Shown: positions 7,491-63,815 of the stretch, piece after piece
How positions within the stretch are numbered: position 1 is the stretch's first letter
Layout of the letters: every line of letters starts with the position of its first letter
From: Promethearchaeota archaeon
GTDB taxonomy: Archaea; Asgardarchaeota; Lokiarchaeia; Sigyniarchaeales; SOKP01
DNA length: 64,000 nt
Direction: 5' to 3'
NCBI GenBank assembly: GCA_048940645.1
Contig: JBHLOI010000006.1
Span: 47,316-111,315 of the forward strand
Made by a program: the position numbers and the translations under genes
Notes under the pieces: model-generated
Told to the model about the DNA's origin: nothing
Databases searched by the model: none
Seen by the model: only the letters and a program-made list of their open reading frames with translations

Positions 7491-8262
7491 ATTTCTTTAA
7501 CCAATTATCCTTAAAATATTTCTCCATCATTAATTTTCTTGCTAAATTTAACTCATTTTCAGTAAAGTTACCTTCTTCCAGTTTTATTCCTAATGTGGAT
7601 TCAAATCCCCTTTTCAAAGAAGATAATAAATCACTTTCGTTGTAATTTTGGAGTTGGTCCCTTATACCTACGCATTTAGAATAAACAGATCTAACCATTT
7701 TTGATTTTGATACATTATGAGGAGCTTTTAATACAGAATACATTAATTCAGGATTAATTTCTAACAGAATAGTTCCATGTTGCAGGAGATAACCCTTCTT
7801 TCTTACTTGAGCATTACCAGAAAATTTTTTACCATTTAAAAATATCGCAGGGCAATGTATAATACCCTTTTCTGGTTTTAATCCATAGTCAGTTAATCCG
7901 TTTACTATGCCTGTTTCAATTATTTCAAATTGCTCAATCACCTTTTTAGCATTAAGTTTTTCTAAGAATTTAAGTGAACAAATGATTGAATAAGTAATTT
8001 CCCCAAACTCATCATGAAAAACAGCTCCACCTCCAGTGATTCTCCTAACGATATTGAAGCCATTTTCTTTCACAACATTCAAATTTACCTCTGCCGAAAG
8101 ACTTTGATTTATACCTATTGAAACTGTTGATGGTTTCCATTTATAAAATCTAATCGTATAATATGAGTTTCTATTTATTACTGACCTCAAAATTGCTTCA
8201 TCTAAAGCCATATTCCAATAACCATTTTTAGTTTGCAATGGTATAAATCTCCATTTTTCCAT
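7483..8262 (-). CDS. Lipoate/octanoate-protein ligase catalytic domain (LplA/LipM family)
   Basis: NMALDEAIL, VRRITGGGAVFHD, GKKFSGNAQ, LQHGTIL. Confidence 0.92.
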   Translation of the reverse strand: MEKWRFIPLQTKNGYWNMALDEAILRSVINRNSYYTIRFYKWKPSTVSIGINQSLSAEVNLNVVKENGFNIVRRITGGGAVFHDEFGEITYSIICSLKFLEKLNAKKVIEQFEIIETGIVNGLTDYGLKPEKGIIHCPAIFLNGKKFSGNAQVRKKGYLLQHGTILLEINPELMYSVLKAPHNVSKSKMVRSVYSKCVGIRDQLQNYNESDLLSSLKRGFESTLGIKLEEGNFTENELNLARKLMMEKYFKDNWLKKYE

Positions 8263-8268
8263 GATTCT

Positions 8269-9270
8269 TCACAATATAAATTTTAAAAGTGAATGATAAA
8301 TCTCTTCTTGCTCTGTTATATTTAAGCCTCGAGGGTAATTATAAATTGGTCCAGAAGGTTTTGATGTATAATAAGGACGATTACAACCAGGACATCCACT
8401 TGTCATAAAGGCATTAGAATTTTCAATTATATTTTTCAATTCCTTCTTATTTAAGTTAAATTTAATTATATCTCCTTTCGAATTAAAGGTAAAATCTTTC
8501 AATTCTTTATTCTCATTGATTATCAAATATCTCCCAAGTTGGATTTTCCTAAATATTACAATTTCAGGCTTTGAATTACTCTGAAGTATTGTTCCCTTTA
8601 TAGGTGTAAAAGCAAAAAGGCTTACCTTGATTTTTAAATTATGTAATCTTTCAATCAGTTCTAAAACCTGTTGCGGAGTTTCTCCTAACCCGATTATTAG
8701 ATGAGTGGTTACAAAACCTACTGAAAATATTTCTAATGCATCATTTAGGCTTTGAAGGTGCAAATTCCAATTATAGGGTCCACTTACACCTTTTCCCTTT
8801 ACTTTTTCAAAAATCTCTTCTGTAGAACCATCTAAAGCGATTCCAACTCTCTCAACGCCAATTAATTTCAAATCTCTTAGCTTGCTTTTTGGCATAGGAG
8901 GTATTGCAATCGAGAGAGGAATGTTTGAATTTTTCTTAATTTTAGTTATAATTTCTACTAAATCCTCAAAATTTTGATCATAATTTAGTGTTTGTATACA
9001 AATCCTCTTAAACTTTTTATGAGGAGGCATATAATTTAATTTTGTTAAAAATTCCTTAAATTCAAAAATTGGCCAAGTTATTCGTGATAAAAACTCTATA
9101 GAGCCTTCCGACTCTCTAGCTTGAGGGCAAAATCCACAATTTGCTGTACAACGCCCTTTAAGGTATGTCATAACGTAGCAAGTAGTTGGTTCGATATTAA
9201 ATTTATTACTTTGAGATAATCCTAAAACTACAGCACTTCCAATTGAAACTCTAATTTTTTCAATAGTCAT
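8269..9270 (-). CDS. lipS2: Radical SAM protein, archaeal lipoyl synthase subunit LipS2-like
   Basis: CTANCGFC; TSGCPGCNRP matches the LipS2 TxGCPxC(N/D)RP motif. Confidence 0.82.
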   Translation of the reverse strand: MTIEKIRVSIGSAVVLGLSQSNKFNIEPTTCYVMTYLKGRCTANCGFCPQARESEGSIEFLSRITWPIFEFKEFLTKLNYMPPHKKFKRICIQTLNYDQNFEDLVEIITKIKKNSNIPLSIAIPPMPKSKLRDLKLIGVERVGIALDGSTEEIFEKVKGKGVSGPYNWNLHLQSLNDALEIFSVGFVTTHLIIGLGETPQQVLELIERLHNLKIKVSLFAFTPIKGTILQSNSKPEIVIFRKIQLGRYLIINENKELKDFTFNSKGDIIKFNLNKKELKNIIENSNAFMTSGCPGCNRPYYTSKPSGPIYNYPRGLNITEQEEIYHSLLKFIL

Positions 9271-9396
9271 TAAGCTTTCTCCAGTTTATAATTATGTTAA
9301 TTTACAATAAATTTAATCTCTATTTCAAAAAAAATTTAATGAATAAATTATTCAAAATAATATTTAGCAATTTTAAATTAAATATGGTTCATTTCT

Positions 9397-12183
9397 ATGG
9401 TTGAATACGATCCCCCCAAAATTGAGAAAAAATGGCAAGAAAAGTGGGAAAAGAGTAAAATATTTGAGGTTAAGGAAGATTTAGCTAAAAAAAGCCTAAA
9501 ATATTATGTTCTTGAAATGTATCCGTATCCATCATCTGAATTACATATGGGACATTTAAGAAATTATTCTATTGGGGATGCTTTTGCGCGTTATAAGAGA
9601 ATGTGTGGCTTTAACGTTTTGTATCCTATGGGATACGATTCTTTTGGCTTACCAGCTGAAAATGCTGCCATAGATCATGGAGTAGATCCTAGAGAATGGA
9701 CTGATTCGAATATTAATGCTATTCAACAACAACAAAAACGTATAGGACTTTCATATGACTGGACGAGGATGATTTATAGCCATGATCCAAATTATTTTAA
9801 GTGGGACCAATGGTTTTTTTTAAAAATGTTTGAAAAAGGTTTAGCATATAGAGAAAAATCTTATGTAAATTGGTGTCCTGATTGTGCTACAGTGCTTGCT
9901 AACGAGCAAGTTCAAGGAGGAAAATGTTGGAGATGTAATACAGATGTCGATCAAAAGTTTCTCACTCAATGGTTTTTAAAAATAAGAGCTTATGCGGAGC
10001 AATTACTCGAGGGTTTGAATATAGTTGATTGGCCAGAAAAAGTGAAATTAATGCAATCTAATTGGATTGGAAAATCAGAAGGGTCAATTATTAAATTTAC
10101 AATAGAAGGAGAAGAACGCACTATTGATATTTTTACAACTAGAGCAGATACATTATTCGGTGCTACATTTATGGTCTTCGCACCTGAACATCCATGGATT
10201 AGAGAATGGGTAGAAAACACTGATTATTTTGAAGAATTTGAGCAATTTTATGCAGAAGTAGCAAAACAGAATAAATTTGAAAGAACTGATATTGATATTG
10301 AAAAAAAAGGGATGTTTATTGGTAAGTATGCTTTAAATCCAATAAATAATGAAAAGCTGCCTATTTATATTGGAAATTTTGTCATCTATGAATATGGTGC
10401 TGGTGCAGTCATGGCTGTTCCTGCCCATGATCAAAGAGATTTCGAATTTGCTAAAGAATATAATATTCCAATCAAAGTAGTGATTCAACCATACGATTAT
10501 AAATTAACTCCTGAAAAGATGACTAGAGCTTATGTAAGTGATGGAATTTTATTTAATTCTGGTGAGTTTAATGGTATGGAAAATAGAAATGCAATAAATG
10601 CTATTACTGAAAAATTAGCTCAATTAGAAATGGGTTTTAATACTATTAATTATAAATTAAGAGACTGGCTAATTTCACGTCAGAGATACTGGGGTTGCCC
10701 AATACCTATTATTTATTGTGAAAACTGCGGAACTGTTCCTGTACCTTATGAAGCTTTACCCGTCAAACTGCCAACAGACGTTAAATTTACAGGTAAAGGA
10801 AATCCATTGAAAACAAGTAAAATTTATGCTAATGTGAACTGTCCTAAATGTAATAAACCCGCTAAGAGAGAAACTGATACAATGGACACATTTATTGATA
10901 GTTCATGGTACTTCTTTAGATATTGCGACCCTGAATCAAAAGATCTCCCATATAGAAAAAACCTTGTAGATTATTGGGGTAATATTGATCAATATATTGG
11001 TGGAATAGAACATGCAGTTATGCATTTATTATATGCTAGATTTTTTACTAAAGTTGCACGAGACTTAAATTTGCACTCTCTTGATGAACCCTTTCAAAGA
11101 TTATTAACTCAAGGTATGATCAATAAACTACACCCATATTGTCCAATGTGCGAAGCATTTGCAATGAAAGCAGATATGAATAATAAAGAATGTAAACGAT
11201 GTGGTACAAAATATATATTAAAAAGTGTAAAAATGAGTAAAAGTCTGGGAAATACCGTAGATCCTATCAGTATAATGGATAAATATGGTGCTGATGCAGC
11301 AAGATTCTTTATATTATTTGGTGCTAGTCCAAAGTCAGGACTAGAATGGTCAGATGAAGGTGTTGATTTTGCATTTAAATTTATTAAGAAGTTTTTCACA
11401 TTAATGTGTGAACCCCTAGACAAAATTAGAAAAGAGAGAAATATAAGAGACATTCTAATTGAATATTATTTAAATAAGACCATTAAAAGTGTTACTGAAA
11501 GCTTAAGCAAAATTGCGATAAGGGATTCTATTAATGAAATTATTCAACTTACATCAGAATTGAATAAATATAAACTTGAAGGAGTAAACAAAAAGATTTT
11601 TGAAATCTGCAAAACTAATTTAGTAAAATTATTACATCCAATTGCTCCTCATATCTCTGAGGAGATATGGGAGATTTTAGGAAATAAAAGTTTTTTAAGC
11701 TTAACAACATGGCCCTCATACGATGAAAATATTTTAACTGTTGAAAATGACTATAAATGGAAACTTCTAAATAATACAATGGATTCAGTGAATCATATTT
11801 TGCATATTATCAAGTTAAATAACATTAAAGAGATATCAATTATCGTCGCTGAAGATTGGAAGCATAGTTTAATTTCAGATTTACTAGAATTAATTGAAAA
11901 TATGGAAAATCATAACCAAATCATAAAAAAAATAATAAAAAATGAAGATTATAAGAAATATGGTAAATTCATCTCCAAGATAGTAGAAAACGCATTAAAA
12001 AATCGTGGTAAATATATGAGATCAACCCTATCTGCTGATGAAGAATATAATTTTTTTACCGATATAAAGTCGTTATTTGAAAAAAAATATCTCTGCCCCA
12101 TTAATGTATTGCATGAAAGAGATTCACATGAAAAAAAGGCAATTCAAGCTTTACCTGGAAGACCTGCTATTATTTTAAAATAA
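9397..12183 (+). CDS. leuS: Leucyl-tRNA synthetase, bacterial-type core with archaeal-type C-terminus
   Basis: MYPYPS.ELHMGH (HIGH), FGLPAENAAI, FTTRADTLFG editing motif, ISRQRYWG, KMSKS. Confidence 0.96.
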   Translation: MVEYDPPKIEKKWQEKWEKSKIFEVKEDLAKKSLKYYVLEMYPYPSSELHMGHLRNYSIGDAFARYKRMCGFNVLYPMGYDSFGLPAENAAIDHGVDPREWTDSNINAIQQQQKRIGLSYDWTRMIYSHDPNYFKWDQWFFLKMFEKGLAYREKSYVNWCPDCATVLANEQVQGGKCWRCNTDVDQKFLTQWFLKIRAYAEQLLEGLNIVDWPEKVKLMQSNWIGKSEGSIIKFTIEGEERTIDIFTTRADTLFGATFMVFAPEHPWIREWVENTDYFEEFEQFYAEVAKQNKFERTDIDIEKKGMFIGKYALNPINNEKLPIYIGNFVIYEYGAGAVMAVPAHDQRDFEFAKEYNIPIKVVIQPYDYKLTPEKMTRAYVSDGILFNSGEFNGMENRNAINAITEKLAQLEMGFNTINYKLRDWLISRQRYWGCPIPIIYCENCGTVPVPYEALPVKLPTDVKFTGKGNPLKTSKIYANVNCPKCNKPAKRETDTMDTFIDSSWYFFRYCDPESKDLPYRKNLVDYWGNIDQYIGGIEHAVMHLLYARFFTKVARDLNLHSLDEPFQRLLTQGMINKLHPYCPMCEAFAMKADMNNKECKRCGTKYILKSVKMSKSLGNTVDPISIMDKYGADAARFFILFGASPKSGLEWSDEGVDFAFKFIKKFFTLMCEPLDKIRKERNIRDILIEYYLNKTIKSVTESLSKIAIRDSINEIIQLTSELNKYKLEGVNKKIFEICKTNLVKLLHPIAPHISEEIWEILGNKSFLSLTTWPSYDENILTVENDYKWKLLNNTMDSVNHILHIIKLNNIKEISIIVAEDWKHSLISDLLELIENMENHNQIIKKIIKNEDYKKYGKFISKIVENALKNRGKYMRSTLSADEEYNFFTDIKSLFEKKYLCPINVLHERDSHEKKAIQALPGRPAIILK

Positions 12184-52799: not shown

Positions 52800-53312
52800 T
52801 TAAACATTAAACAACCTTTCACCAAGCTTTATTGTTATTATTGCTTGTAATGCAACAAAAGCAGTAATAACTAAAATCATTCCTATAACTAAAATTTTTA
52901 CTGCCGTTTTCTTATTATATACATATTTAGATGCTTGATATACTAATAAAAATCCTATAGAACAAAGAAAAATGAAAATTGAAGCTACTATACTCTCAAT
53001 TATAAAAGCTTCGTTAAGATCAGGATATAATAGAACAGCATTACCCTGATTATCTGCTCCTATTGCTACAGGTTCTCTATAAATAATATATACTATTCCC
53101 ATCTGAAGTAAGAATAAAATAATATAAATTCCTATAACCACTAAAGACTTACCTGGTAAAGGCATATCCATTTTAGGAAGTTTTATCTGCGGGTAGGCTA
53201 TTTTAGGTTTCCGTAATGAATTTCCAAATATCCATGGAGTCCTACTCTTCATTTTTTCAAAAACTGTTTCTGAACCACTGATTTCTTCTTTAGCAGTTTT
53301 TCGTTTTTCCAT
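52800..53312 (-). CDS. OST3/OST6-family membrane subunit, OSTC/DC2-like (3 TM, no thioredoxin domain)
   Basis: GIVYIIYREPVAIG...LNEAFIIESIVASIFIFLCSIGFL...IKLG pattern of OST3/6-DC2 TM region. Confidence 0.72.
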   Translation of the reverse strand: MEKRKTAKEEISGSETVFEKMKSRTPWIFGNSLRKPKIAYPQIKLPKMDMPLPGKSLVVIGIYIILFLLQMGIVYIIYREPVAIGADNQGNAVLLYPDLNEAFIIESIVASIFIFLCSIGFLLVYQASKYVYNKKTAVKILVIGMILVITAFVALQAIITIKLGERLFNV

Positions 53313-54976: not shown

Positions 54977-56083
54977 ATGAGTAGCTGGAAAGATTTATAT
55001 TCTGAAGTCAAGCAACGTAAAATGGAAGCCCTCAATAAAAAGGATGTTGTGAAAGCAGTTGAAGAACATGGTAAAATTTTAGCTGTTGAAGGACGATATG
55101 AGAAACCAAAAAAGATTATTGAACACATGTATGCTGCAGCACATGAGACAATAAAACCAAAACAAATCATGAAATATAACCTTAAAGATTATGACGTTGT
55201 GTTGATTGGATGCCCAGGTGATGGAGTACCACATTCAGCTTATCCAAAAATTAAAGAATACGTGTCAACTCATGGGGGTTGGTTAATTACGACAGATTGG
55301 GCAATTAAAACCCTGGTCGAAGTAATTTTCCCAGGATATGTTCGCTGGAATGGAAAAAAGACTGCAGATGCCGTTGTTGCTTGTCAAATAATGGAACCAA
55401 ATCATCCATTTTTAGATGGTGTTTTAACTGAAATCCAACAGAGTAAATGGCAAAAAGGTGCCTCAAAAAATACCAAAAAAACGGAATTTCGATGGTGGTT
55501 GGAGACTAAAAGTTTTCCTATAACTATATTGAATCCAACAGTTCATGTTTTAATATCATCGCAAGATATTCTTCGAAAGTGGGGAGAATCTCCTGTTTTT
55601 TTATATTTTGATTATGGTAAAGCTGGTGGAAGGGTAATTCATATGATCTCCCATACTCATTTACAAAAAGGAGGTCCTAAAGGAAAATATGCATCAGCAC
55701 TTATATTAACTAACATTTTAGATGAAAAAGTCTCTCAAAAGACAGGAATTTCAAAATCACCTACGACAGGGTATGTATCTAATTGGGAACAAACGCAACA
55801 ACCTCAACAGCAATATACAACACCTAATCAACAAAAAGACTTTTTGATTCCTTCGGACGCGGTAAGCGGATTAACAGGAACTGCACAAATCACAGAAGCA
55901 AATGTAAATAGCAATGATTTTTCATTTGCTAGTACATGTGGTTATTGTGGATATGACTTTGGGGAATACACAGGCAAAATTTATATGTGTAATGCCTGTA
56001 AAACGCTATATCATGAAACATGTCTAAATATGCAGATAAATGAAGGTACATGTAAAAATTGTAATAAAATTTTATTATGGTAA
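54977..56083 (+). CDS. Class I GATase-like fold protein with Q-rich linker and C-terminal C4HC3 RING/PHD-like finger
   Basis: DYDVVLIGCPG, GGWLITTDWA; CGYC-x13-CNAC-x4-H-x2-C-x9-CKNC at the C-terminus. Confidence 0.65.
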   Translation: MSSWKDLYSEVKQRKMEALNKKDVVKAVEEHGKILAVEGRYEKPKKIIEHMYAAAHETIKPKQIMKYNLKDYDVVLIGCPGDGVPHSAYPKIKEYVSTHGGWLITTDWAIKTLVEVIFPGYVRWNGKKTADAVVACQIMEPNHPFLDGVLTEIQQSKWQKGASKNTKKTEFRWWLETKSFPITILNPTVHVLISSQDILRKWGESPVFLYFDYGKAGGRVIHMISHTHLQKGGPKGKYASALILTNILDEKVSQKTGISKSPTTGYVSNWEQTQQPQQQYTTPNQQKDFLIPSDAVSGLTGTAQITEANVNSNDFSFASTCGYCGYDFGEYTGKIYMCNACKTLYHETCLNMQINEGTCKNCNKILLW

Positions 56084-57619: not shown

Positions 57620-57970
57620 ATGAAAAAAAAAGTCTGTCAAGTCATAGAAGATTATCATTCCGCTTATCCAGATCCTTTTATAGTAAATAAGGGTGAAATA
57701 TTAAGAATTGAAAATAAAGAATGTGATTGGTCTGGTTGGATCTGGTGCATAAACAATGATGGCGAAGGAAGATGGGTTCCAATAGATCATATAGAACTTC
57801 AAGAAACTCAAGCTAAATTTACCCAAGATTATAATTCTATAGAATTAACAGTATCAGCTGGTCAAATCCTAACTATTGAAAAAGAGTCATATGGCTGGAT
57901 TTGGGTGATTGATGAAAGTAATAAAGCTGGATGGATTCCATTAAAAAATGTCAAAATTTTAAGTGAATAA
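57620..57970 (+). CDS. Tandem SH3-domain protein
   Basis: Two repeats: DY..ELTV..G.IL.I...GWIW.....GW(V/I)P. Confidence 0.85.
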   Translation: MKKKVCQVIEDYHSAYPDPFIVNKGEILRIENKECDWSGWIWCINNDGEGRWVPIDHIELQETQAKFTQDYNSIELTVSAGQILTIEKESYGWIWVIDESNKAGWIPLKNVKILSE

Positions 57971-58964: not shown

Positions 58965-60071
58965 TTGAACATTGAAAAAATTTGGGATTTTAACGCGAAT
59001 GAACAGTTACTAGGAGTTGAATTAGGAAATCTCATCGAAGGTAATAATAAACAAATTATTACATATACTAAATCTGGAAAAATCCTAATATTCTCATTAA
59101 ATGGCAAATTATTGTTTAAAGATGAAATAACAAAGAATACACCAATTTGGAAAGCATTAATATATGATATAGATAATGATGGTAAAGAAGAGCTACTTTT
59201 AGGTGGAATGGATGGAGTTTTAAGAGTCTTTAAATATAAGGCTGAATTTAAGTTAAAGCACTATTGGACACATAGATTTAATTCCTCTATTGGGGGAATT
59301 TTAGTAGATGATATTAATTATGACGGAATTAATGAAATTATCTCCTTTTCTCTTGATAAAAGTCTACGAGTTCTAAACCCATTAGATGGTTCTTTAATAT
59401 GGGGACAAATTTTTGAAGAAGGAATTGGGGATGCACTAATATGGAGAAACTTAAAAGATCCCAATGAGATTGAAATTATTGCATGTGGTAATGATGGTAC
59501 AATAAGAATTTTTGATAATAAATATGGAGAATTACTCTGGTTTAAACGATTTTCTAATAAAGTTAGATGCCTATCTTATATGTGTTCATATCAATACGAT
59601 TACCTCGTATGTGGAGGAGATGATAAAAAAATACATATTATTGATAAAGAACGGAAAAAAGAGATTAAAACCTTCGAATCAGATGATATTATTTGGAAAT
59701 GCCTTTCATTTCCTCCACACCAACATAATAATTTATTAGTAAGTTCCTATTCTTTTGAATTTTTAGACAACTCAATTAAAGATATAAAATTCAAATCCAA
59801 AGTAATGTGTTTCAATGAGAATCTTGGTGTTAAATGGGAGTATAAAAATGTAAATGCTGAAATTCTTAGCTATATTAATGCTCTTGAAAACAAGTGCATA
59901 GCGATTGGAACAACGCGTGGTTATTTAATGCTACTAGATGAGCTCAATGGTAAATTACTAGCTCAAATTAATAATCCTTCTTGTTTAAATGGTTTTTATT
60001 TTGATGATGATTCAATGACTTTAGTAACTTGTCATGATAATGGATATATTTATGCTTTTATTCTTGATTAA
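58965..60071 (+). CDS. Beta-propeller protein (WD40 / FG-GAP-like repeats)
   Basis: DIDNDGKEELLLGGMDGVLRVF, DINYDGINEII, ACGNDGTIRIFD, CGGDDKKIHIID. Confidence 0.82.
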   Translation: MNIEKIWDFNANEQLLGVELGNLIEGNNKQIITYTKSGKILIFSLNGKLLFKDEITKNTPIWKALIYDIDNDGKEELLLGGMDGVLRVFKYKAEFKLKHYWTHRFNSSIGGILVDDINYDGINEIISFSLDKSLRVLNPLDGSLIWGQIFEEGIGDALIWRNLKDPNEIEIIACGNDGTIRIFDNKYGELLWFKRFSNKVRCLSYMCSYQYDYLVCGGDDKKIHIIDKERKKEIKTFESDDIIWKCLSFPPHQHNNLLVSSYSFEFLDNSIKDIKFKSKVMCFNENLGVKWEYKNVNAEILSYINALENKCIAIGTTRGYLMLLDELNGKLLAQINNPSCLNGFYFDDDSMTLVTCHDNGYIYAFILD

Positions 60072-60113: not shown

Positions 60114-60857
60114 ATGTGTCGTATGTTTTTCCAGTGTTCGACAGAACCATTTAACATTCAATATAATTTTTTAGAAAAGTTTGTAAAAACCTGCCATTGG
60201 CAATATTTACGAAAATATAATTTATATGGACATCATGGATTAGGTTGGGGTTTTGCTTACATTCCAGAAAATACTAATAGTAAACTAATTATTAAAAGAG
60301 ATATTACTCCAATTTATCATTCCGATTGGAAGAATTTGGTTAAAATTAAAACCAGATTTTTATTAGTACACGCAAGAAGAGCTTATCCTTGGAATAAATG
60401 CTTTAATGATGTTCATCCCATTAATATTGATGAAAAGTATTTAATAGTCCATAATGGAGTTATTAAGAATAAATCCTTTCCTAAATTAATAAATCCTAAA
60501 TTAGAAGATATTAAGAATAATACAAGATTGGATACACGAAAATACCTGTGTTATATAATTGATCAATTAAATATGGAACATGACCTAAAAAGCTCCTTAG
60601 AAGAAATGTTTAAAAAGATAGAAATTGCAGCTGGAGCAAATGCTTTTCTTTTTAATTCAAAAGAATGTAATATAATCACATATCATAATACAAACTTCAA
60701 TGGCAGGCATCATACGCTATTTATCTCTAAAAACTTCGATAGGGTAACAGTATCAACAACTCCAATATTAAAGGGGGCCAAGGAAATACCAAATAACTCC
60801 TTAATTCAAATTAATCTAAAAAAACTAAATATGAATATAACAAAATTAAATAAATGA
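60114..60857 (+). CDS. Class II (Ntn) glutamine amidotransferase-like protein (YafJ/EgtC-like)
   Basis: MCRM N-terminal nucleophile Cys, GWGFAY, VHARRA, HP, HNG. Confidence 0.85.
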   Translation: MCRMFFQCSTEPFNIQYNFLEKFVKTCHWQYLRKYNLYGHHGLGWGFAYIPENTNSKLIIKRDITPIYHSDWKNLVKIKTRFLLVHARRAYPWNKCFNDVHPINIDEKYLIVHNGVIKNKSFPKLINPKLEDIKNNTRLDTRKYLCYIIDQLNMEHDLKSSLEEMFKKIEIAAGANAFLFNSKECNIITYHNTNFNGRHHTLFISKNFDRVTVSTTPILKGAKEIPNNSLIQINLKKLNMNITKLNK

Positions 60858-60894
60858 ATATAAAAAAAATAAAAATTTTTTAGTTATTCTCGTA

Positions 60895-61218
60895 TTAACC
60901 TTCTGAAGATTCTTCTTCCTCAGCTGCTAGTTCTTCCTCCAACTCTTCGAGTGGAACTGGTGCAGGTGTGGTGAGCATACTGTACCCTATCCAAATAGCG
61001 ATAATACAAATTAATATTACAATCAACCACATTGGTAAAACAACGAATGCTTCATAATCTAGCCAATCAACACCAAAAAATCGAAAAGCTAGATCCCAAT
61101 TTGGATTATTAAGCAACTTATCAAATATGAGATCAACGAGAGATCCCATTGTATAGATAATTGCAATTAAAATTCCTAAAATTGCTACAATAGCACCTAT
61201 AATTTTATCTTTTGCCAT
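60895..61218 (-). CDS. 2-TM membrane protein resembling DPM2 (dolichol-phosphate mannose synthase subunit 2)
   Basis: DKIIGAIVAILGILIAIIYT ... AFVVLPMWLIVILICIIAIWIGYSMLTT; acidic tail. Confidence 0.55.
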   Translation of the reverse strand: MAKDKIIGAIVAILGILIAIIYTMGSLVDLIFDKLLNNPNWDLAFRFFGVDWLDYEAFVVLPMWLIVILICIIAIWIGYSMLTTPAPVPLEELEEELAAEEEESSEG

Positions 61219-61391: not shown

Positions 61392-62360
61392 ATGATCAAC
61401 GTAAAAGATTATGTCATGATTATAGGTTCAAGTAATATGGATTTAAATATATATTCAGAAAGGCTACCAGAACCAGGTGAAACTGTTACTGGAGGAACAT
61501 TTAAGCAATATTTAGGAGGAAAAGGAGCTAATCAGTCAGTTGCATCTAAACGTTCTGGTTCGAATACATTATTTATTGCAAAGCTTGGGAAAGATGCTTT
61601 CGGTGATCAAATTATCTCACAGTTAGGAGATGAGGGTATCAATATTGACCATATTATTAGGGATCCAAATGAACAAAGTGGAATAGCATTCATAATGATT
61701 GATAAAAATGGAGAAAATATGATAAGTGTGGCTCCTGGAGCAAATGTAAAGTTGATGCCTGAAGATATTCGAAAAAAGGCAGATTTAATTAAAAATGCGA
61801 ATACGTTAGTAGTACAGATGGAAATCCCAATTGAAACTATCAATGAGATTTTCTCCATAGCTTCTAAAGGAAATGTTATTAAAATTCTAAATCCAGCTCC
61901 TTTAAAACCAATTCCAGTTAAGATTTTAAAAAGTATTGATGTTATTACTCCAAATGAGGGTGAATTAATTAGATTATATTCATTGCTGGGATTTAAGGAA
62001 TTTAAGAGAAAGGATAATGAAATGATGGTTCAGATATCAAGAGATATTACTAGTTTAGGAGTCAAGGATGTGATTATTACTTTAGGTGAGAAAGGATCAT
62101 TAGTTTATCAATCAGAAATAGATAAGATCACTAAAATTCCCGCAATTAAAGTTAAAGCCATTGATACAGTTGGAGCTGGTGATTGCTTTAATGGAGTTCT
62201 AGCTAGTAAATTAAATCAAGGAAAAGATTTAATAACAAGTGTTAAATATGCCACTATAGCAGCTTCTATAGCAGTAACTCGCAGAGGAGCGCAAACGTCA
62301 ATCCCTTATTTCCATGAAATTGAAGAAAAATATATTGAATTTAATAGATTATTTAATTAG
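61392..62360 (+). CDS. rbsK: Ribokinase (PfkB family)
   Basis: GSSNMDL, GGKGANQ, ILNPAP, TPNEGE, IDTVGAGDCF. Confidence 0.93.
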   Translation: MINVKDYVMIIGSSNMDLNIYSERLPEPGETVTGGTFKQYLGGKGANQSVASKRSGSNTLFIAKLGKDAFGDQIISQLGDEGINIDHIIRDPNEQSGIAFIMIDKNGENMISVAPGANVKLMPEDIRKKADLIKNANTLVVQMEIPIETINEIFSIASKGNVIKILNPAPLKPIPVKILKSIDVITPNEGELIRLYSLLGFKEFKRKDNEMMVQISRDITSLGVKDVIITLGEKGSLVYQSEIDKITKIPAIKVKAIDTVGAGDCFNGVLASKLNQGKDLITSVKYATIAASIAVTRRGAQTSIPYFHEIEEKYIEFNRLFN

Positions 62361-62372
62361 GGGTATTTTCCT

Positions 62373-63047
62373 ATGATAAGTGAATATTTATTTCCCAAGA
62401 GAGGGAATTTTCTCAGGAAAAATAGTACAAATAAATTATTAATTAGCATTAATGATAATGAGCTTAATAACATATACCTTATAAATGGAACTTCTTTTAT
62501 CACTAAAAATATAAGAGCTAAAGATTTAATTATAGAACCGCACAACTACTATATGATAATAAATAATGGTAAGAAGAAAATTAAAATTAATTATAACCAT
62601 GATATTTCTATTCATGATATAATTTACAATCCGTATAAATACGAGCATTCTAAAAAATCAGATTTTGACCCAGAAACGTTTAAAAAATTGTATAATATTC
62701 CTGAAGGTTTTATTGATGTGTTATCAAAGTGGTACAGTATAAAATTCACATATCCTGATTATAATTTAATTTATATTAAACCAGAGATGGGAATTTCTAT
62801 TCAAGTTCATTACTTCAGGAGTGAGATTTGGGAAATTTTAGGAGGAAAACCAATAGTTATTAATGGTAATAAAGTTTTTTATTTTGTTGAAAATGGCACT
62901 TATTTCGAAAACCCAATTAATACCTATCATTCGGTGATAAACCCAAATATTGATCCAGGAAACTTCGTGTTAATTAGAGAAAAATGGGAAGGTAAATTTG
63001 ACGAGAAGGACATAGAAAGGGTATATAATCCTAACAAATATTATTAG
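62373..63047 (+). CDS. Cupin protein, type II mannose-6-phosphate isomerase-like C-terminal domain
   Basis: IKPEMGISIQVHYFRSEIW ... HSVIN ... FDEKDIERV. Confidence 0.65.
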   Translation: MISEYLFPKRGNFLRKNSTNKLLISINDNELNNIYLINGTSFITKNIRAKDLIIEPHNYYMIINNGKKKIKINYNHDISIHDIIYNPYKYEHSKKSDFDPETFKKLYNIPEGFIDVLSKWYSIKFTYPDYNLIYIKPEMGISIQVHYFRSEIWEILGGKPIVINGNKVFYFVENGTYFENPINTYHSVINPNIDPGNFVLIREKWEGKFDEKDIERVYNPNKYY

Positions 63048-63278: not shown

Positions 63279-63815
63279 ATGACTCCGAATGAGGAACTTG
63301 ACAAAGAAGATCAAGAAGATTTAGAAGAAGAAGAATTTCTTGAGGAAATAGAAGAAGAAGTTGAAGAAGAAGTAGAAGAGGAAGAAGTTTTAGATGTCGA
63401 AAAAGAGCGTGATAGATTACGTTTTCATTATCGTGGTCATACTTTAGATGACTTAAAAAAGATGAATATGGATCAGTTATTACAATTATTACCTGCTAGA
63501 GCTAGAAGAAGTTTAAGAAGAGGACTGCCTCCAAGACAAAAGAAAGTTATTGAAAGGTTAAGGAGAGCGTATAGAGCAAAAAAAAGAGGTAAAGATCTAA
63601 TTGTGAGAACACACGTCCGAGATTTAATAATTTTCCCAGAATTCGTTGGGCTTAAGGTTGGAATTTACAACGGAAGGAATTATGATATTGTAGAAATACG
63701 ACCTGAAATGATTGGTCATTATTTAGGCGAATTTGCCCTTACAAGAAAGAGAGTACAGCATGGTTCCCCTGGTATCGGAGCAACACGTTCAAGTAAATAT
63801 GTTCCACTTAAGTAA
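63279..63815 (+). CDS. rps19p: 30S ribosomal protein uS19 with acidic N-terminal extension
   Basis: FHYRG, LPARARRSLRRG, RTHVRD, PEMIGHYLGEF, HGSPGIGATRSSKYVPLK. Confidence 0.97.
   Translation: MTPNEELDKEDQEDLEEEEFLEEIEEEVEEEVEEEEVLDVEKERDRLRFHYRGHTLDDLKKMNMDQLLQLLPARARRSLRRGLPPRQKKVIERLRRAYRAKKRGKDLIVRTHVRDLIIFPEFVGLKVGIYNGRNYDIVEIRPEMIGHYLGEFALTRKRVQHGSPGIGATRSSKYVPLK

Follow-up and report, generated by a model that had tools for sequence, protein, structure and literature searches.

A two-helix membrane protein of an Asgard archaeon is very probably a homologue of DPM2 and PIG-P, and its obvious partners do not track it

We analysed a window of 64,000 nucleotides from a Promethearchaeota archaeon (GenBank assembly GCA_048940645.1, contig JBHLOI010000006.1, positions 47,316 to 111,315) and, within it, a gene at 60895-61218 on the minus strand encoding a membrane protein of 107 residues, P0001, hereafter the hairpin protein. 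Comparison of its family with eukaryotic sequences makes it very probable that the hairpin protein is homologous to both DPM2 and PIG-P. DPM2 (PF07297) is the regulatory subunit of the eukaryotic type-II dolichol-phosphate-mannose (Dol-P-Man) synthase and also a component of the glycosylphosphatidylinositol (GPI)-N-acetylglucosamine (GlcNAc) transferase (GPI-GnT), of which PIG-P (PF08510) is a further subunit. On the sequence evidence the kinship is true but distant, and the hairpin protein appears no closer to DPM2 than to PIG-P, being best read as a pre-duplication DPM2/PIG-P homologue. No candidate partner glycosyltransferase approaches the hairpin protein in degree of conservation. Moreover, neither the GPI-GnT subunits nor any one conserved enzyme of glycosyltransferase family 2 (GT2) resembling dolichol-phosphate-mannose synthase (DPMS) tracks it.

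The gene and its predicted protein

The window is AT-rich, and the GC content of the whole genome is 29.8%. The ORF (open reading frame) listing and translation give a single ORF at 60895-61218 on the minus strand, with an ATG start and 107 residues; the start is backed by the family, as nearly all aligned members begin M-x-K-D-K. Its parts are given below with the basis for each.

60895..61218, minus strand: hairpin gene including the stop codon, encoding a 107-residue DPM2/PIG-P-like two-helix membrane protein (ORF and translation, homologues, family profile, AlphaFold2 (AF2) model)
61147..61209, minus strand: K-D-K-x-x-G motif and helix 1 ending in Y-T, residues 4-24 (family alignment, DPM2 alignment, AF2)
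61051..61146, minus strand: inter-helix loop, residues 25-56, variable, net-acidic and aromatic-rich (alignment A1; predicted local distance difference test (pLDDT) 56-76)
60973..61050, minus strand: helix 2 with P62 and the terminal W-I-G-Y-S-M-L, residues 57-82 (conservation, gap-free DPM2 alignment)
60898..60972, minus strand: T-T-P-(A/P)-P-x-P linker and acidic C-terminal helix, residues 83-107 (conservation, AF2)

P0001 begins M-A-K-D-K, and residues 4-23 (DKIIGAIVAILGILIAIIYT) lead into a first helix that ends in Y-T. The loop that follows has 32 residues; no other part of family alignment A1 varies as much or has as many indels. Helix 2 opens with V-V-L-P and closes with W-I-G-Y-S-M-L (residues 57-84 read AFVVLPMWLIVILICIIAIWIGYSMLTT), and is succeeded by T-T-P-A-P-V-P and an acidic tail. 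An AF2 model built with 50 relatives (mean pLDDT 87) places helices at residues 3-37, 55-83 and 90-106; confidence is lowest in the loop (pLDDT 56-76) and stands at 94 in the C-terminal helix. From the N-terminal lysines, the loop is predicted to lie outside the cell and both termini in the cytoplasm. At 0.234, the GC content at third codon positions (GC3) is unremarkable, the genome mean being 0.208 with an sd of 0.032. The idea that a raised GC3 signals high expression was therefore dropped.

Homology to DPM2 and PIG-P

When P0001 is scanned alone against Pfam, its three best families are PIG-P (E 0.0085), DPM3 (E 0.016) and DPM2 (E 0.036). Taken at the level of this one sequence the scores speak against the kinship: the PIG-P match has 16.4 bits against a curated cut-off of 39.3 and reaches profile position 85, the DPM2 match, confined to helix 2, has 14.8 bits where the cut-off asks for 27.3, and P0001 by itself lies under every curated cut-off in Pfam. 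Likewise, it was not significant (E 1.1) in a whole-genome search with the Pfam DPM2 model. Moreover, the PIG-P model is documented as giving false matches through simple membrane helices (PMC3217874). Therefore, the family was tested instead of the single sequence.

A word-indexed search returned 631 homologues, with 71-99% identity among the best 120 listed, whose source names include Loki-, Hermod-, Thor-, Hod- and Promethearchaeota. An exhaustive phmmer search over 1.8 billion cluster representatives returned 73 clusters. Fifty full-length archaeal representatives make up family alignment A1, in which G8 and G78 are invariant, P62, W76 and I77 are at least 90% conserved, and D4 and Y22-T23 are conserved. 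The consensus reads M-x-K-D-K-x-x-G ... Y-T ... P-x-W-L-A ... W-I-G-x-T-M-x-T-T-P-P-P-x-P-x-E followed by an acidic tail, and the tail motif TTPPPxP(I/L)EE(L/I)E is common to Asgard and Thermoproteota members. Scanned singly, 34 of the 50 members match PIG-P (E up to 0.1, best E 2.3e-10) and 31 match DPM2 (best E 1.7e-8). DPM3 is matched by seven, and for P0001 that match is weak and falls on helix 2. One member, P0138, is 42% identical to P0001 (phmmer E 2.9e-10) and reaches 39.8 bits against PIG-P, just above the cut-off of 39.3 (profile positions 3-101 of 121), and 32.6 bits against DPM2, where the cut-off is 27.3 (positions 2-71 of 75). What these scores point to is membership of the DPM2/PIG-P family or superfamily by transitivity, not membership of the P0001 sequence alone.

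DPM2 sequences were fetched with a bait of 78 residues, and all later work used the database sequences so obtained; the DPM2 profile holds 14 mammalian sequences only and is hence shallow. Aligned with this profile by hhalign, the 50 archaeal members gave a probability of 97%, a pairwise E of 1e-10 and a score of 56.3 over 76 columns, with DPM2 residues 4-79 set against P0001 residues 2-87 and gaps in neither helix. In the first helix D4 of P0001 pairs with D6 of DPM2, G8 with G10 and Y22-T23 with Y24-T25, whilst in the second, which is aligned with DPM2 residues 49-74, P62 pairs with P54, I77 with I69, Y79 with Y71 and M81 with M73. Reversal of one alignment gave scores of 11.0 and 9.4, and reversal of both gave 54.5. 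In 150 column shuffles confined within transmembrane segment 1 (TM1), loop, TM2 and tail, the mean score was 13.9 (sd 3.1, maximum 26.8). An unrelated C-terminal hairpin of a GT2 enzyme scored 16.3 against the family, and a likeness of the family to the C-terminal hairpin of Asgard GtrB-like GT2 enzymes was dismissed on this score. Because 56.3 far exceeds the reversed, shuffled and GT2-hairpin controls, the kinship is position-specific and real.

The protein had been proposed as a DPM2 homologue in a first-pass annotation, made by a model from the letters of the window. The two transmembrane sequences quoted there agree letter for letter with the translation, and the strings of human DPM2 that it gave match database DPM2 with one difference, S and not T after YVMLK in several mammals. 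Its alignment of landmark residues, drawn without gaps inside the helices, was reproduced by the unbiased profile-profile alignment. It had also named an outcome of only generic transmembrane-hairpin matches as evidence against itself; the match obtained with DPM2 is significant and position-specific (hhalign 97%, with the controls above). Its suggestion of a Foldseek search bore no fruit, as the AF2 model returned only generic hairpins from the PDB (ATP synthase c, WXG100), all at E > 2, which is uninformative for a two-helix fold. Searched against solved structures in the PDB at E up to 10, the family profile gave no relevant match, and no DPM2, PIG-P or 5mlz chain.

Could the resemblance be that of any two hydrophobic hairpins, the protein being unrelated to DPM2 and PIG-P? 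Such a view can draw on the sub-threshold scores of P0001 alone, on the proneness of the PIG-P model to false membrane-helix matches (PMC3217874) and on the generic hairpins, for example ATP synthase c subunits, that were all Foldseek returned. Sub-threshold matches to Phage_holin_3_6 (PF07332), an unrelated two-helix family, occur in 26 of the 50 members and likewise count against the kinship, since they suggest that composition contributes to some of the scores. However, P0138 lies above two curated cut-offs over nearly full models, the profile score of 56.3 compares with 9-11 for reversed alignments, at most 26.8 for shuffled ones and 16.3 for the GT2 hairpin, and the conserved polar or special residues (D, G, Y-T, P, Y, M) each occupy matching positions. 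We therefore regard a chance resemblance as largely refuted and highly improbable. Membership of Phage_holin_3_6 was itself rejected (P0001 14.2 bits; best individually scanned member, P0213, 26.5 bits; cut-off 28.4), as was a phage or lysis context for the gene, whose neighbours are ribosomal and sugar-metabolism genes and not phage genes.

Evolutionary placement and known systems

A PIG-P-like side to the hairpin protein is suggested because PIG-P is the top match for most members and because the PIG-P model covers the segment after helix 2; in P0138 the tail (residues about 80-108) lies within the part of the PIG-P profile beyond TM2. The first-pass label of DPM2 homologue can thus be kept for the homology and not for any greater closeness to DPM2 than to PIG-P. 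In a published tree of PF07297, DPM2 and PIGP arise from a duplication that predates the last eukaryotic common ancestor, with Asgard sequences as the sister group (PMC12872463), and the pre-duplication placement given here agrees with that tree. An Asgard origin has also been reported for the whole GPI-GnT complex (PMC12872458). The Asgard origin of DPM2/PIGP is already in print, in 2025-26 (PMC12872463, PMC12872458), and for some members PF07297/PF08510 matches already stand in public precomputed annotation. The P0001 sequence itself was unannotated, and the gene is a typical family member. The first-pass description of the protein as little-noticed is thus no more than half right.

With DPM2 the archaeal protein shares a two-helix hairpin of equal size, together with D-x-x-x-G, Y-T, an early proline in helix 2 and I-x-Y-x-M. 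DPM2, at about 80 residues, stops a few basic residues past helix 2, whereas the archaeal protein continues for 25 residues through a proline-rich linker and a 17-residue acidic helix that are conserved family-wide. Its inter-helix loop is also longer. As in PIG-P, the hairpin is followed by a C-terminal segment, predicted to be cytosolic, that falls within the profile match (to position 101 of 121 in P0138). Unlike PIG-P, the archaeal tail is strongly acidic. This genome yielded none of the other GPI-GnT subunits, nor did 101 Asgard genomes yield PIG-C. DPM3 (PF08285), the membrane tether of DPM1, likewise has two helices and a cytosolic C-terminal helix, which in DPM3 binds the catalytic subunit; the similarity, however, is sub-threshold and covers one helix only, and the hairpin protein is not a DPM3 member on present evidence. 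In the type-III Dol-P-Man synthase of Pyrococcus furiosus (5mlz), helices 1 and 3 resemble human DPM2, and the helix pairs could correspond to DPM2 and DPM3 (Gandini et al., PMC5526996). This enzyme provides an archaeal precedent for hairpins that serve a DPMS catalytic domain. However, its two two-helix pairs are fused to the enzyme whilst the archaeal hairpin stands alone, and the A1 profile has no 5mlz match in the PDB even at an E of 10.

DPM2 and PIG-P stand at the entry of two pathways of the endoplasmic reticulum (ER), namely the supply of mannose for N-, O- and C-glycosylation and the synthesis of GPI anchors. A single, highly conserved pre-duplication version, present in nearly all the Asgard genomes searched and widespread in Thermoproteota, would offer a simpler system in which to study the mechanism by which these small subunits act, and the archaeal hairpin helps to date the assembly of the ER glycosylation machinery. 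The value of this particular instance is modest, given that the kinship is published and the gene is typical of its family.

Distribution of the family

The family profile was found in 138 of the 151 Asgard-phylum genomes searched, mostly with one match per genome, and in 70 of the 72 that are of high quality. Named members beyond the main Asgard groups come from Njordarchaeota, Wukongarchaeota, 'Asgardarchaeia', Bathyarchaeia, Geothermarchaeales, Nitrososphaerota and other Thermoproteota, and one family record is labelled Euryarchaeota. A motif scan of species-representative genomes, for which a 12-member subset alignment (A4) was used, confirmed at least 444 loci. The best 80 of these are almost all from Bathyarchaeia, with single Baldrarchaeota, Nitrososphaerota and unclassified Thermoproteota records, and one contig among them (JBEKSS010000003.1) carries two hairpin copies 8 kb apart. 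In the present genome the best raw match to PIG-P (22-24 bits) belongs to another protein, a 255-residue multi-helix protein with an acidic C-terminal stretch on contig C11 (L001:1417-2184, minus strand). It was considered as a paralogue and rejected, as hhalign aligned it to the family at 25% over 7 columns.

Small proteins of this kind had been expected in other archaea, and those found are mostly labelled hypothetical or mislabelled 'transcriptional regulator'. The source labels of many members, which are 'hypothetical', 'transcriptional regulator' and 'BrkB/YihY family', are names that the present data do not support. In one clear fusion, P0356 (291 residues, metagenomic, five member sequences), a long acidic linker connects the hairpin with a DUF4332 helix-hairpin-helix domain (147.7 bits), and this fusion may explain the 'transcriptional regulator' label in some sources. 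A second longer protein was rejected as a fusion, since its contig has just 985 bp and a miscalled read-through is the probable explanation.

Gene neighbourhoods

The hairpin gene is separated by a 37-bp spacer, composed of A and T runs, from the convergent gene at 60114-60857 on the plus strand.

60862..60881, no strand assigned: A/T-run spacer between the convergent genes (direct sequence reading)

On the minus strand TTTTT and TTTTTTTT runs lie 20-35 nt past the stop of the hairpin gene, and on the plus strand TTTTTT lies past the stop of the 60114-60857 gene. Because oligo-T is read just past each stop on either strand, the spacer is probably a terminator shared by both genes. At 61392-63047 on the plus strand, between the hairpin gene and the operon of ribosomal protein S19, lie genes for a PfkB-family sugar kinase (322 residues) and a cupin resembling mannose-6-phosphate isomerase (PMI; 224 residues, PF01050, 36 bits), a pair that also occurs together in the close relative CP070805.1. 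The same relative (L011) shares with the window a further neighbour of the hairpin gene, which is found here at 58965-60071 on the plus strand and encodes a 368-residue beta-propeller matching WD40, FG-GAP, BBS7, BBS2 and ITFG2-type models.

Regions of 10 kb from 40 further genera, together with the window, gave a set of 41 Asgard loci, in which neighbours were clustered. Those recurring within 5 kb of the hairpin gene are as follows.

S19 ribosomal operon: 21 of 41 loci, window included
Phosphogluco/phosphomannomutase (PMM): 17 of 41 loci in six taxonomic families, immediately convergent in 8
Electron-transfer flavoprotein genes: 12-14 of 41 loci, largely in one lineage
Tetratricopeptide repeat (TPR) protein: 10 of 41 loci
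PMI-like cupin: 6 of 41 loci, window included
PfkB kinase: 5 of 41 loci, window included

In the 80 mostly Bathyarchaeia loci, a gene for S-adenosylhomocysteine (SAH) hydrolase lies directly upstream on the same strand in 55, and one for a sugar-1-phosphate nucleotidyltransferase is found no more than 4 kb away in 11, in nine of which it follows immediately downstream. In one Thermoproteota lineage the hairpin gene is divergent from a cis-prenyltransferase gene 48 bp away, with a DegT-type aminotransferase, a GT2_3 enzyme and an AglH-type transferase encoded within 6 kb. Another lineage has the hairpin gene near SecY and an EMC3/YidC-like gene, and in other lineages nothing relevant was found in its neighbourhood. 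PMI, PMM and the nucleotidyltransferase are three steps to GDP-mannose, and it is on this account that their repeated, separate linkage to the hairpin gene is suggestive. The linkage to sugar-activation and dolichol genes is loose, the enzyme families are all generic ones, and inherited synteny around the ribosomal operon may account for much of the Asgard pattern.

Proposed role and candidate partners

Overall, the hairpin protein is best explained as a genuine DPM2/PIG-P superfamily hairpin acting as a platform for a lipid-linked transferase, an explanation that we regard as evenly poised between right and wrong. Analogy with its relatives is the ground for the role as such, that of a platform for a lipid-linked sugar transferase, which we hold tentatively and place slightly short of probable; it is taken as the most likely role because homology and architecture are shared with the eukaryotic hairpins. 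As in those relatives, the hairpin would be a small, non-catalytic membrane platform that docks, orients or stabilises a peripheral glycosyltransferase at the cytoplasmic face, where the enzyme would act on a lipid phosphate acceptor. The hairpin would lie in the membrane beside this acceptor whilst its acidic helix contacts the enzyme. The likeliest clients would be GT2 enzymes resembling dolichol-phosphate-hexose synthases, of which this genome has four, and the protein itself would descend from an ancestor whose duplication on the eukaryotic stem gave rise to DPM2 and PIG-P. Human GPI-GnT has been modelled with AlphaFold3 (PMC12182360): in the model PIGA, a peripheral enzyme of glycosyltransferase family 4 (GT4), lies over three V-shaped hairpins of two helices each, namely PIGP, PIGY and DPM2, and its orientation alters when PIGP or PIGY is removed.

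An adaptor for several enzymes, or a role centred on the lipid, is favoured over a one-to-one pairing because the hairpin is very conserved and the clients are variable. With a good deal of doubt, we suggest that it might be an ancestral Asgard/Thermoproteota adaptor that docks interchangeable, helix-poor dolichol-phosphate-hexose synthases through its acidic helix, and perhaps other peripheral lipid-directed transferases too. Were this so, the type II design of Dol-P-Man synthase and the hairpin platform of GPI-GnT would predate eukaryotes, and both eukaryotic designs would have arisen by duplication of one gene.

Nine GT2 genes were found in this genome, four of them DPMS-like. For the three that were queried the best solved relative is P. 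furiosus 5mlz (E 1.4e-13, 3.7e-9 and 1.3e-16), and the fourth is a paralogue.

C68:6717-7442: helix-less DPMS-like GT2 of ~240 residues (5mlz relative, 0 membrane helices)
C1:65280-65996: helix-less DPMS-like GT2 of ~240 residues (5mlz relative, 0 membrane helices)
C64:8097-10050: adjacent paralogous pair of DPMS-like GT2 (8097-9059 and 9208-10050), 52% identical, with one C-terminal membrane helix each

With its single C-terminal helix, the C64 pair has the 'type I' layout of yeast Dpm1 in an Asgard genome, and helix-less DPMS-like versions are common in Asgard genomes. The helix-poor set fits a eukaryote-like multi-subunit enzyme. In yeast the DPM2 homologue binds both one-helix Dpm1 and the PIG-A homologue Spt14 (PMC7728079).

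Against a platform with such clients stands a body of evidence from partners, neighbours and fusions. DPM3 was not found in this genome. One DPMS-like GT2 has a best orthologue of 45% identity, and only 35% within the genus; another was found in 4 of 61 genomes; and a third, at 65% identity within the genus and 43-47% within the taxonomic family, is absent from two members of that family. In comparison, the public homologues that score best with the hairpin, which are largely Lokiarchaeia-type records, are near 75-80% identity, far above these GT2 orthologues. Two well-assembled Asgard genomes, G005 (98% complete) and G016 (95%), keep the hairpin with its tail and have one weak GT2 each, and the G005 GT2, queried by sequence, has no solved relatives, DPMS included. 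A GT2 gene recurring beside the hairpin gene was found in none of the 41 Asgard or 80 mostly Bathyarchaeia loci, where the commonest neighbours are housekeeping genes (the S19 operon and SAH hydrolase). A search for fusions, in which 8000 candidates were scored, gave two longer proteins, neither with a transferase domain, although this is weak evidence. Complex prediction of the hairpin (A1) with a helix-less DPMS-like GT2 (18-row alignment) scored 0.00 in both runs, which had no controls; this value, below the mark, weighs neither for nor against a pairing. The contribution made here is thus negative but useful, in that the obvious partners do not track the hairpin, and for this reason the question of its partner is more interesting than the label of an archaeal DPM synthase subunit. 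As a separate observation, G005 and G016 are genomes of one taxonomic family, and their single GT2 enzymes (L095:1474-2307 and L096:1084-2214) are atypical and share motifs with each other by eye.

The homology might be real and the hairpin nevertheless do some other housekeeping job in the membrane, such as handling polyprenyl or dolichyl phosphate itself or serving several membrane complexes, the roles of DPM2 and PIG-P being later eukaryotic specialisations. A family that is near-universal, mostly single-match and very conserved, set beside GT2 candidates that are each variable or missing, would sit well with such a role, as would the S19 operon and SAH hydrolase as commonest neighbours, the SecY and EMC3/YidC-like genes nearby in one lineage, and a rare fusion partner that is a DUF4332 helix-hairpin-helix and not a transferase. 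However, the two eukaryotic relatives that have been characterised each belong to a lipid-directed glycosyltransferase complex, sugar-activation or dolichol genes are linked to the hairpin gene in four separate lineages, and positive evidence for an alternative activity is nil. On balance we consider a housekeeping role unlikely, though well worth keeping in mind.

A different partner would be implied if the hairpin played the part of PIG-P in an archaeal GPI-GnT-like enzyme, where a GT4 (PIG-A/MshA-like) would place GlcNAc on archaetidylinositol. Some methanogens are known to contain glucosaminyl-archaetidylinositol lipids. Most members have PIG-P as their best Pfam family (34/50, best E 2.3e-10), and a hairpin followed by a putative cytosolic tail is PIG-P-like. 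The reported Asgard origin of GPI-GnT (PMC12872458) would also favour such an enzyme. However, in this genome, at 89.6% completeness, PIG-C, the PIG-A-specific domain and PIG-H are all without a match, and the only trace is a weak Gpi1/PIG-Q-like stretch of 17.6 bits. PIG-C was found in 0 of the 101 Asgard genomes searched, with a model that had no positive control, and a GT4 gene recurring beside the hairpin gene was not found in the 41 Asgard and 80 mostly Bathyarchaeia loci. Taken together, these results make a GPI-GnT-like role improbable, and a platform for a lipid-linked transferase is retained as the preferred reading.

Other features of the window

Some 8 kb from the hairpin gene, a gene at 52800-53312 on the minus strand encodes a 170-residue membrane protein that matches the OST3/OST6 membrane domain (31 bits, cut-off 27, profile positions 179-288 of 294) and is thus oligosaccharyltransferase-subunit-like. 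Two further genes encode eukaryote-type domains, namely a 116-residue protein with two SH3_2 matches (53 bits) at 57620-57970 on the plus strand and a 368-residue protein with a weak, sub-cut-off PHD-finger match (20.4 bits) at 54977-56083 on the same strand. Lastly, ribosomal protein S19 (63279-63815, plus strand) carries a strongly acidic N-terminal extension of ~75 residues, its Pfam match beginning at residue 77, and this extended form (173-177 residues) is also present in close relatives (L011, L104).

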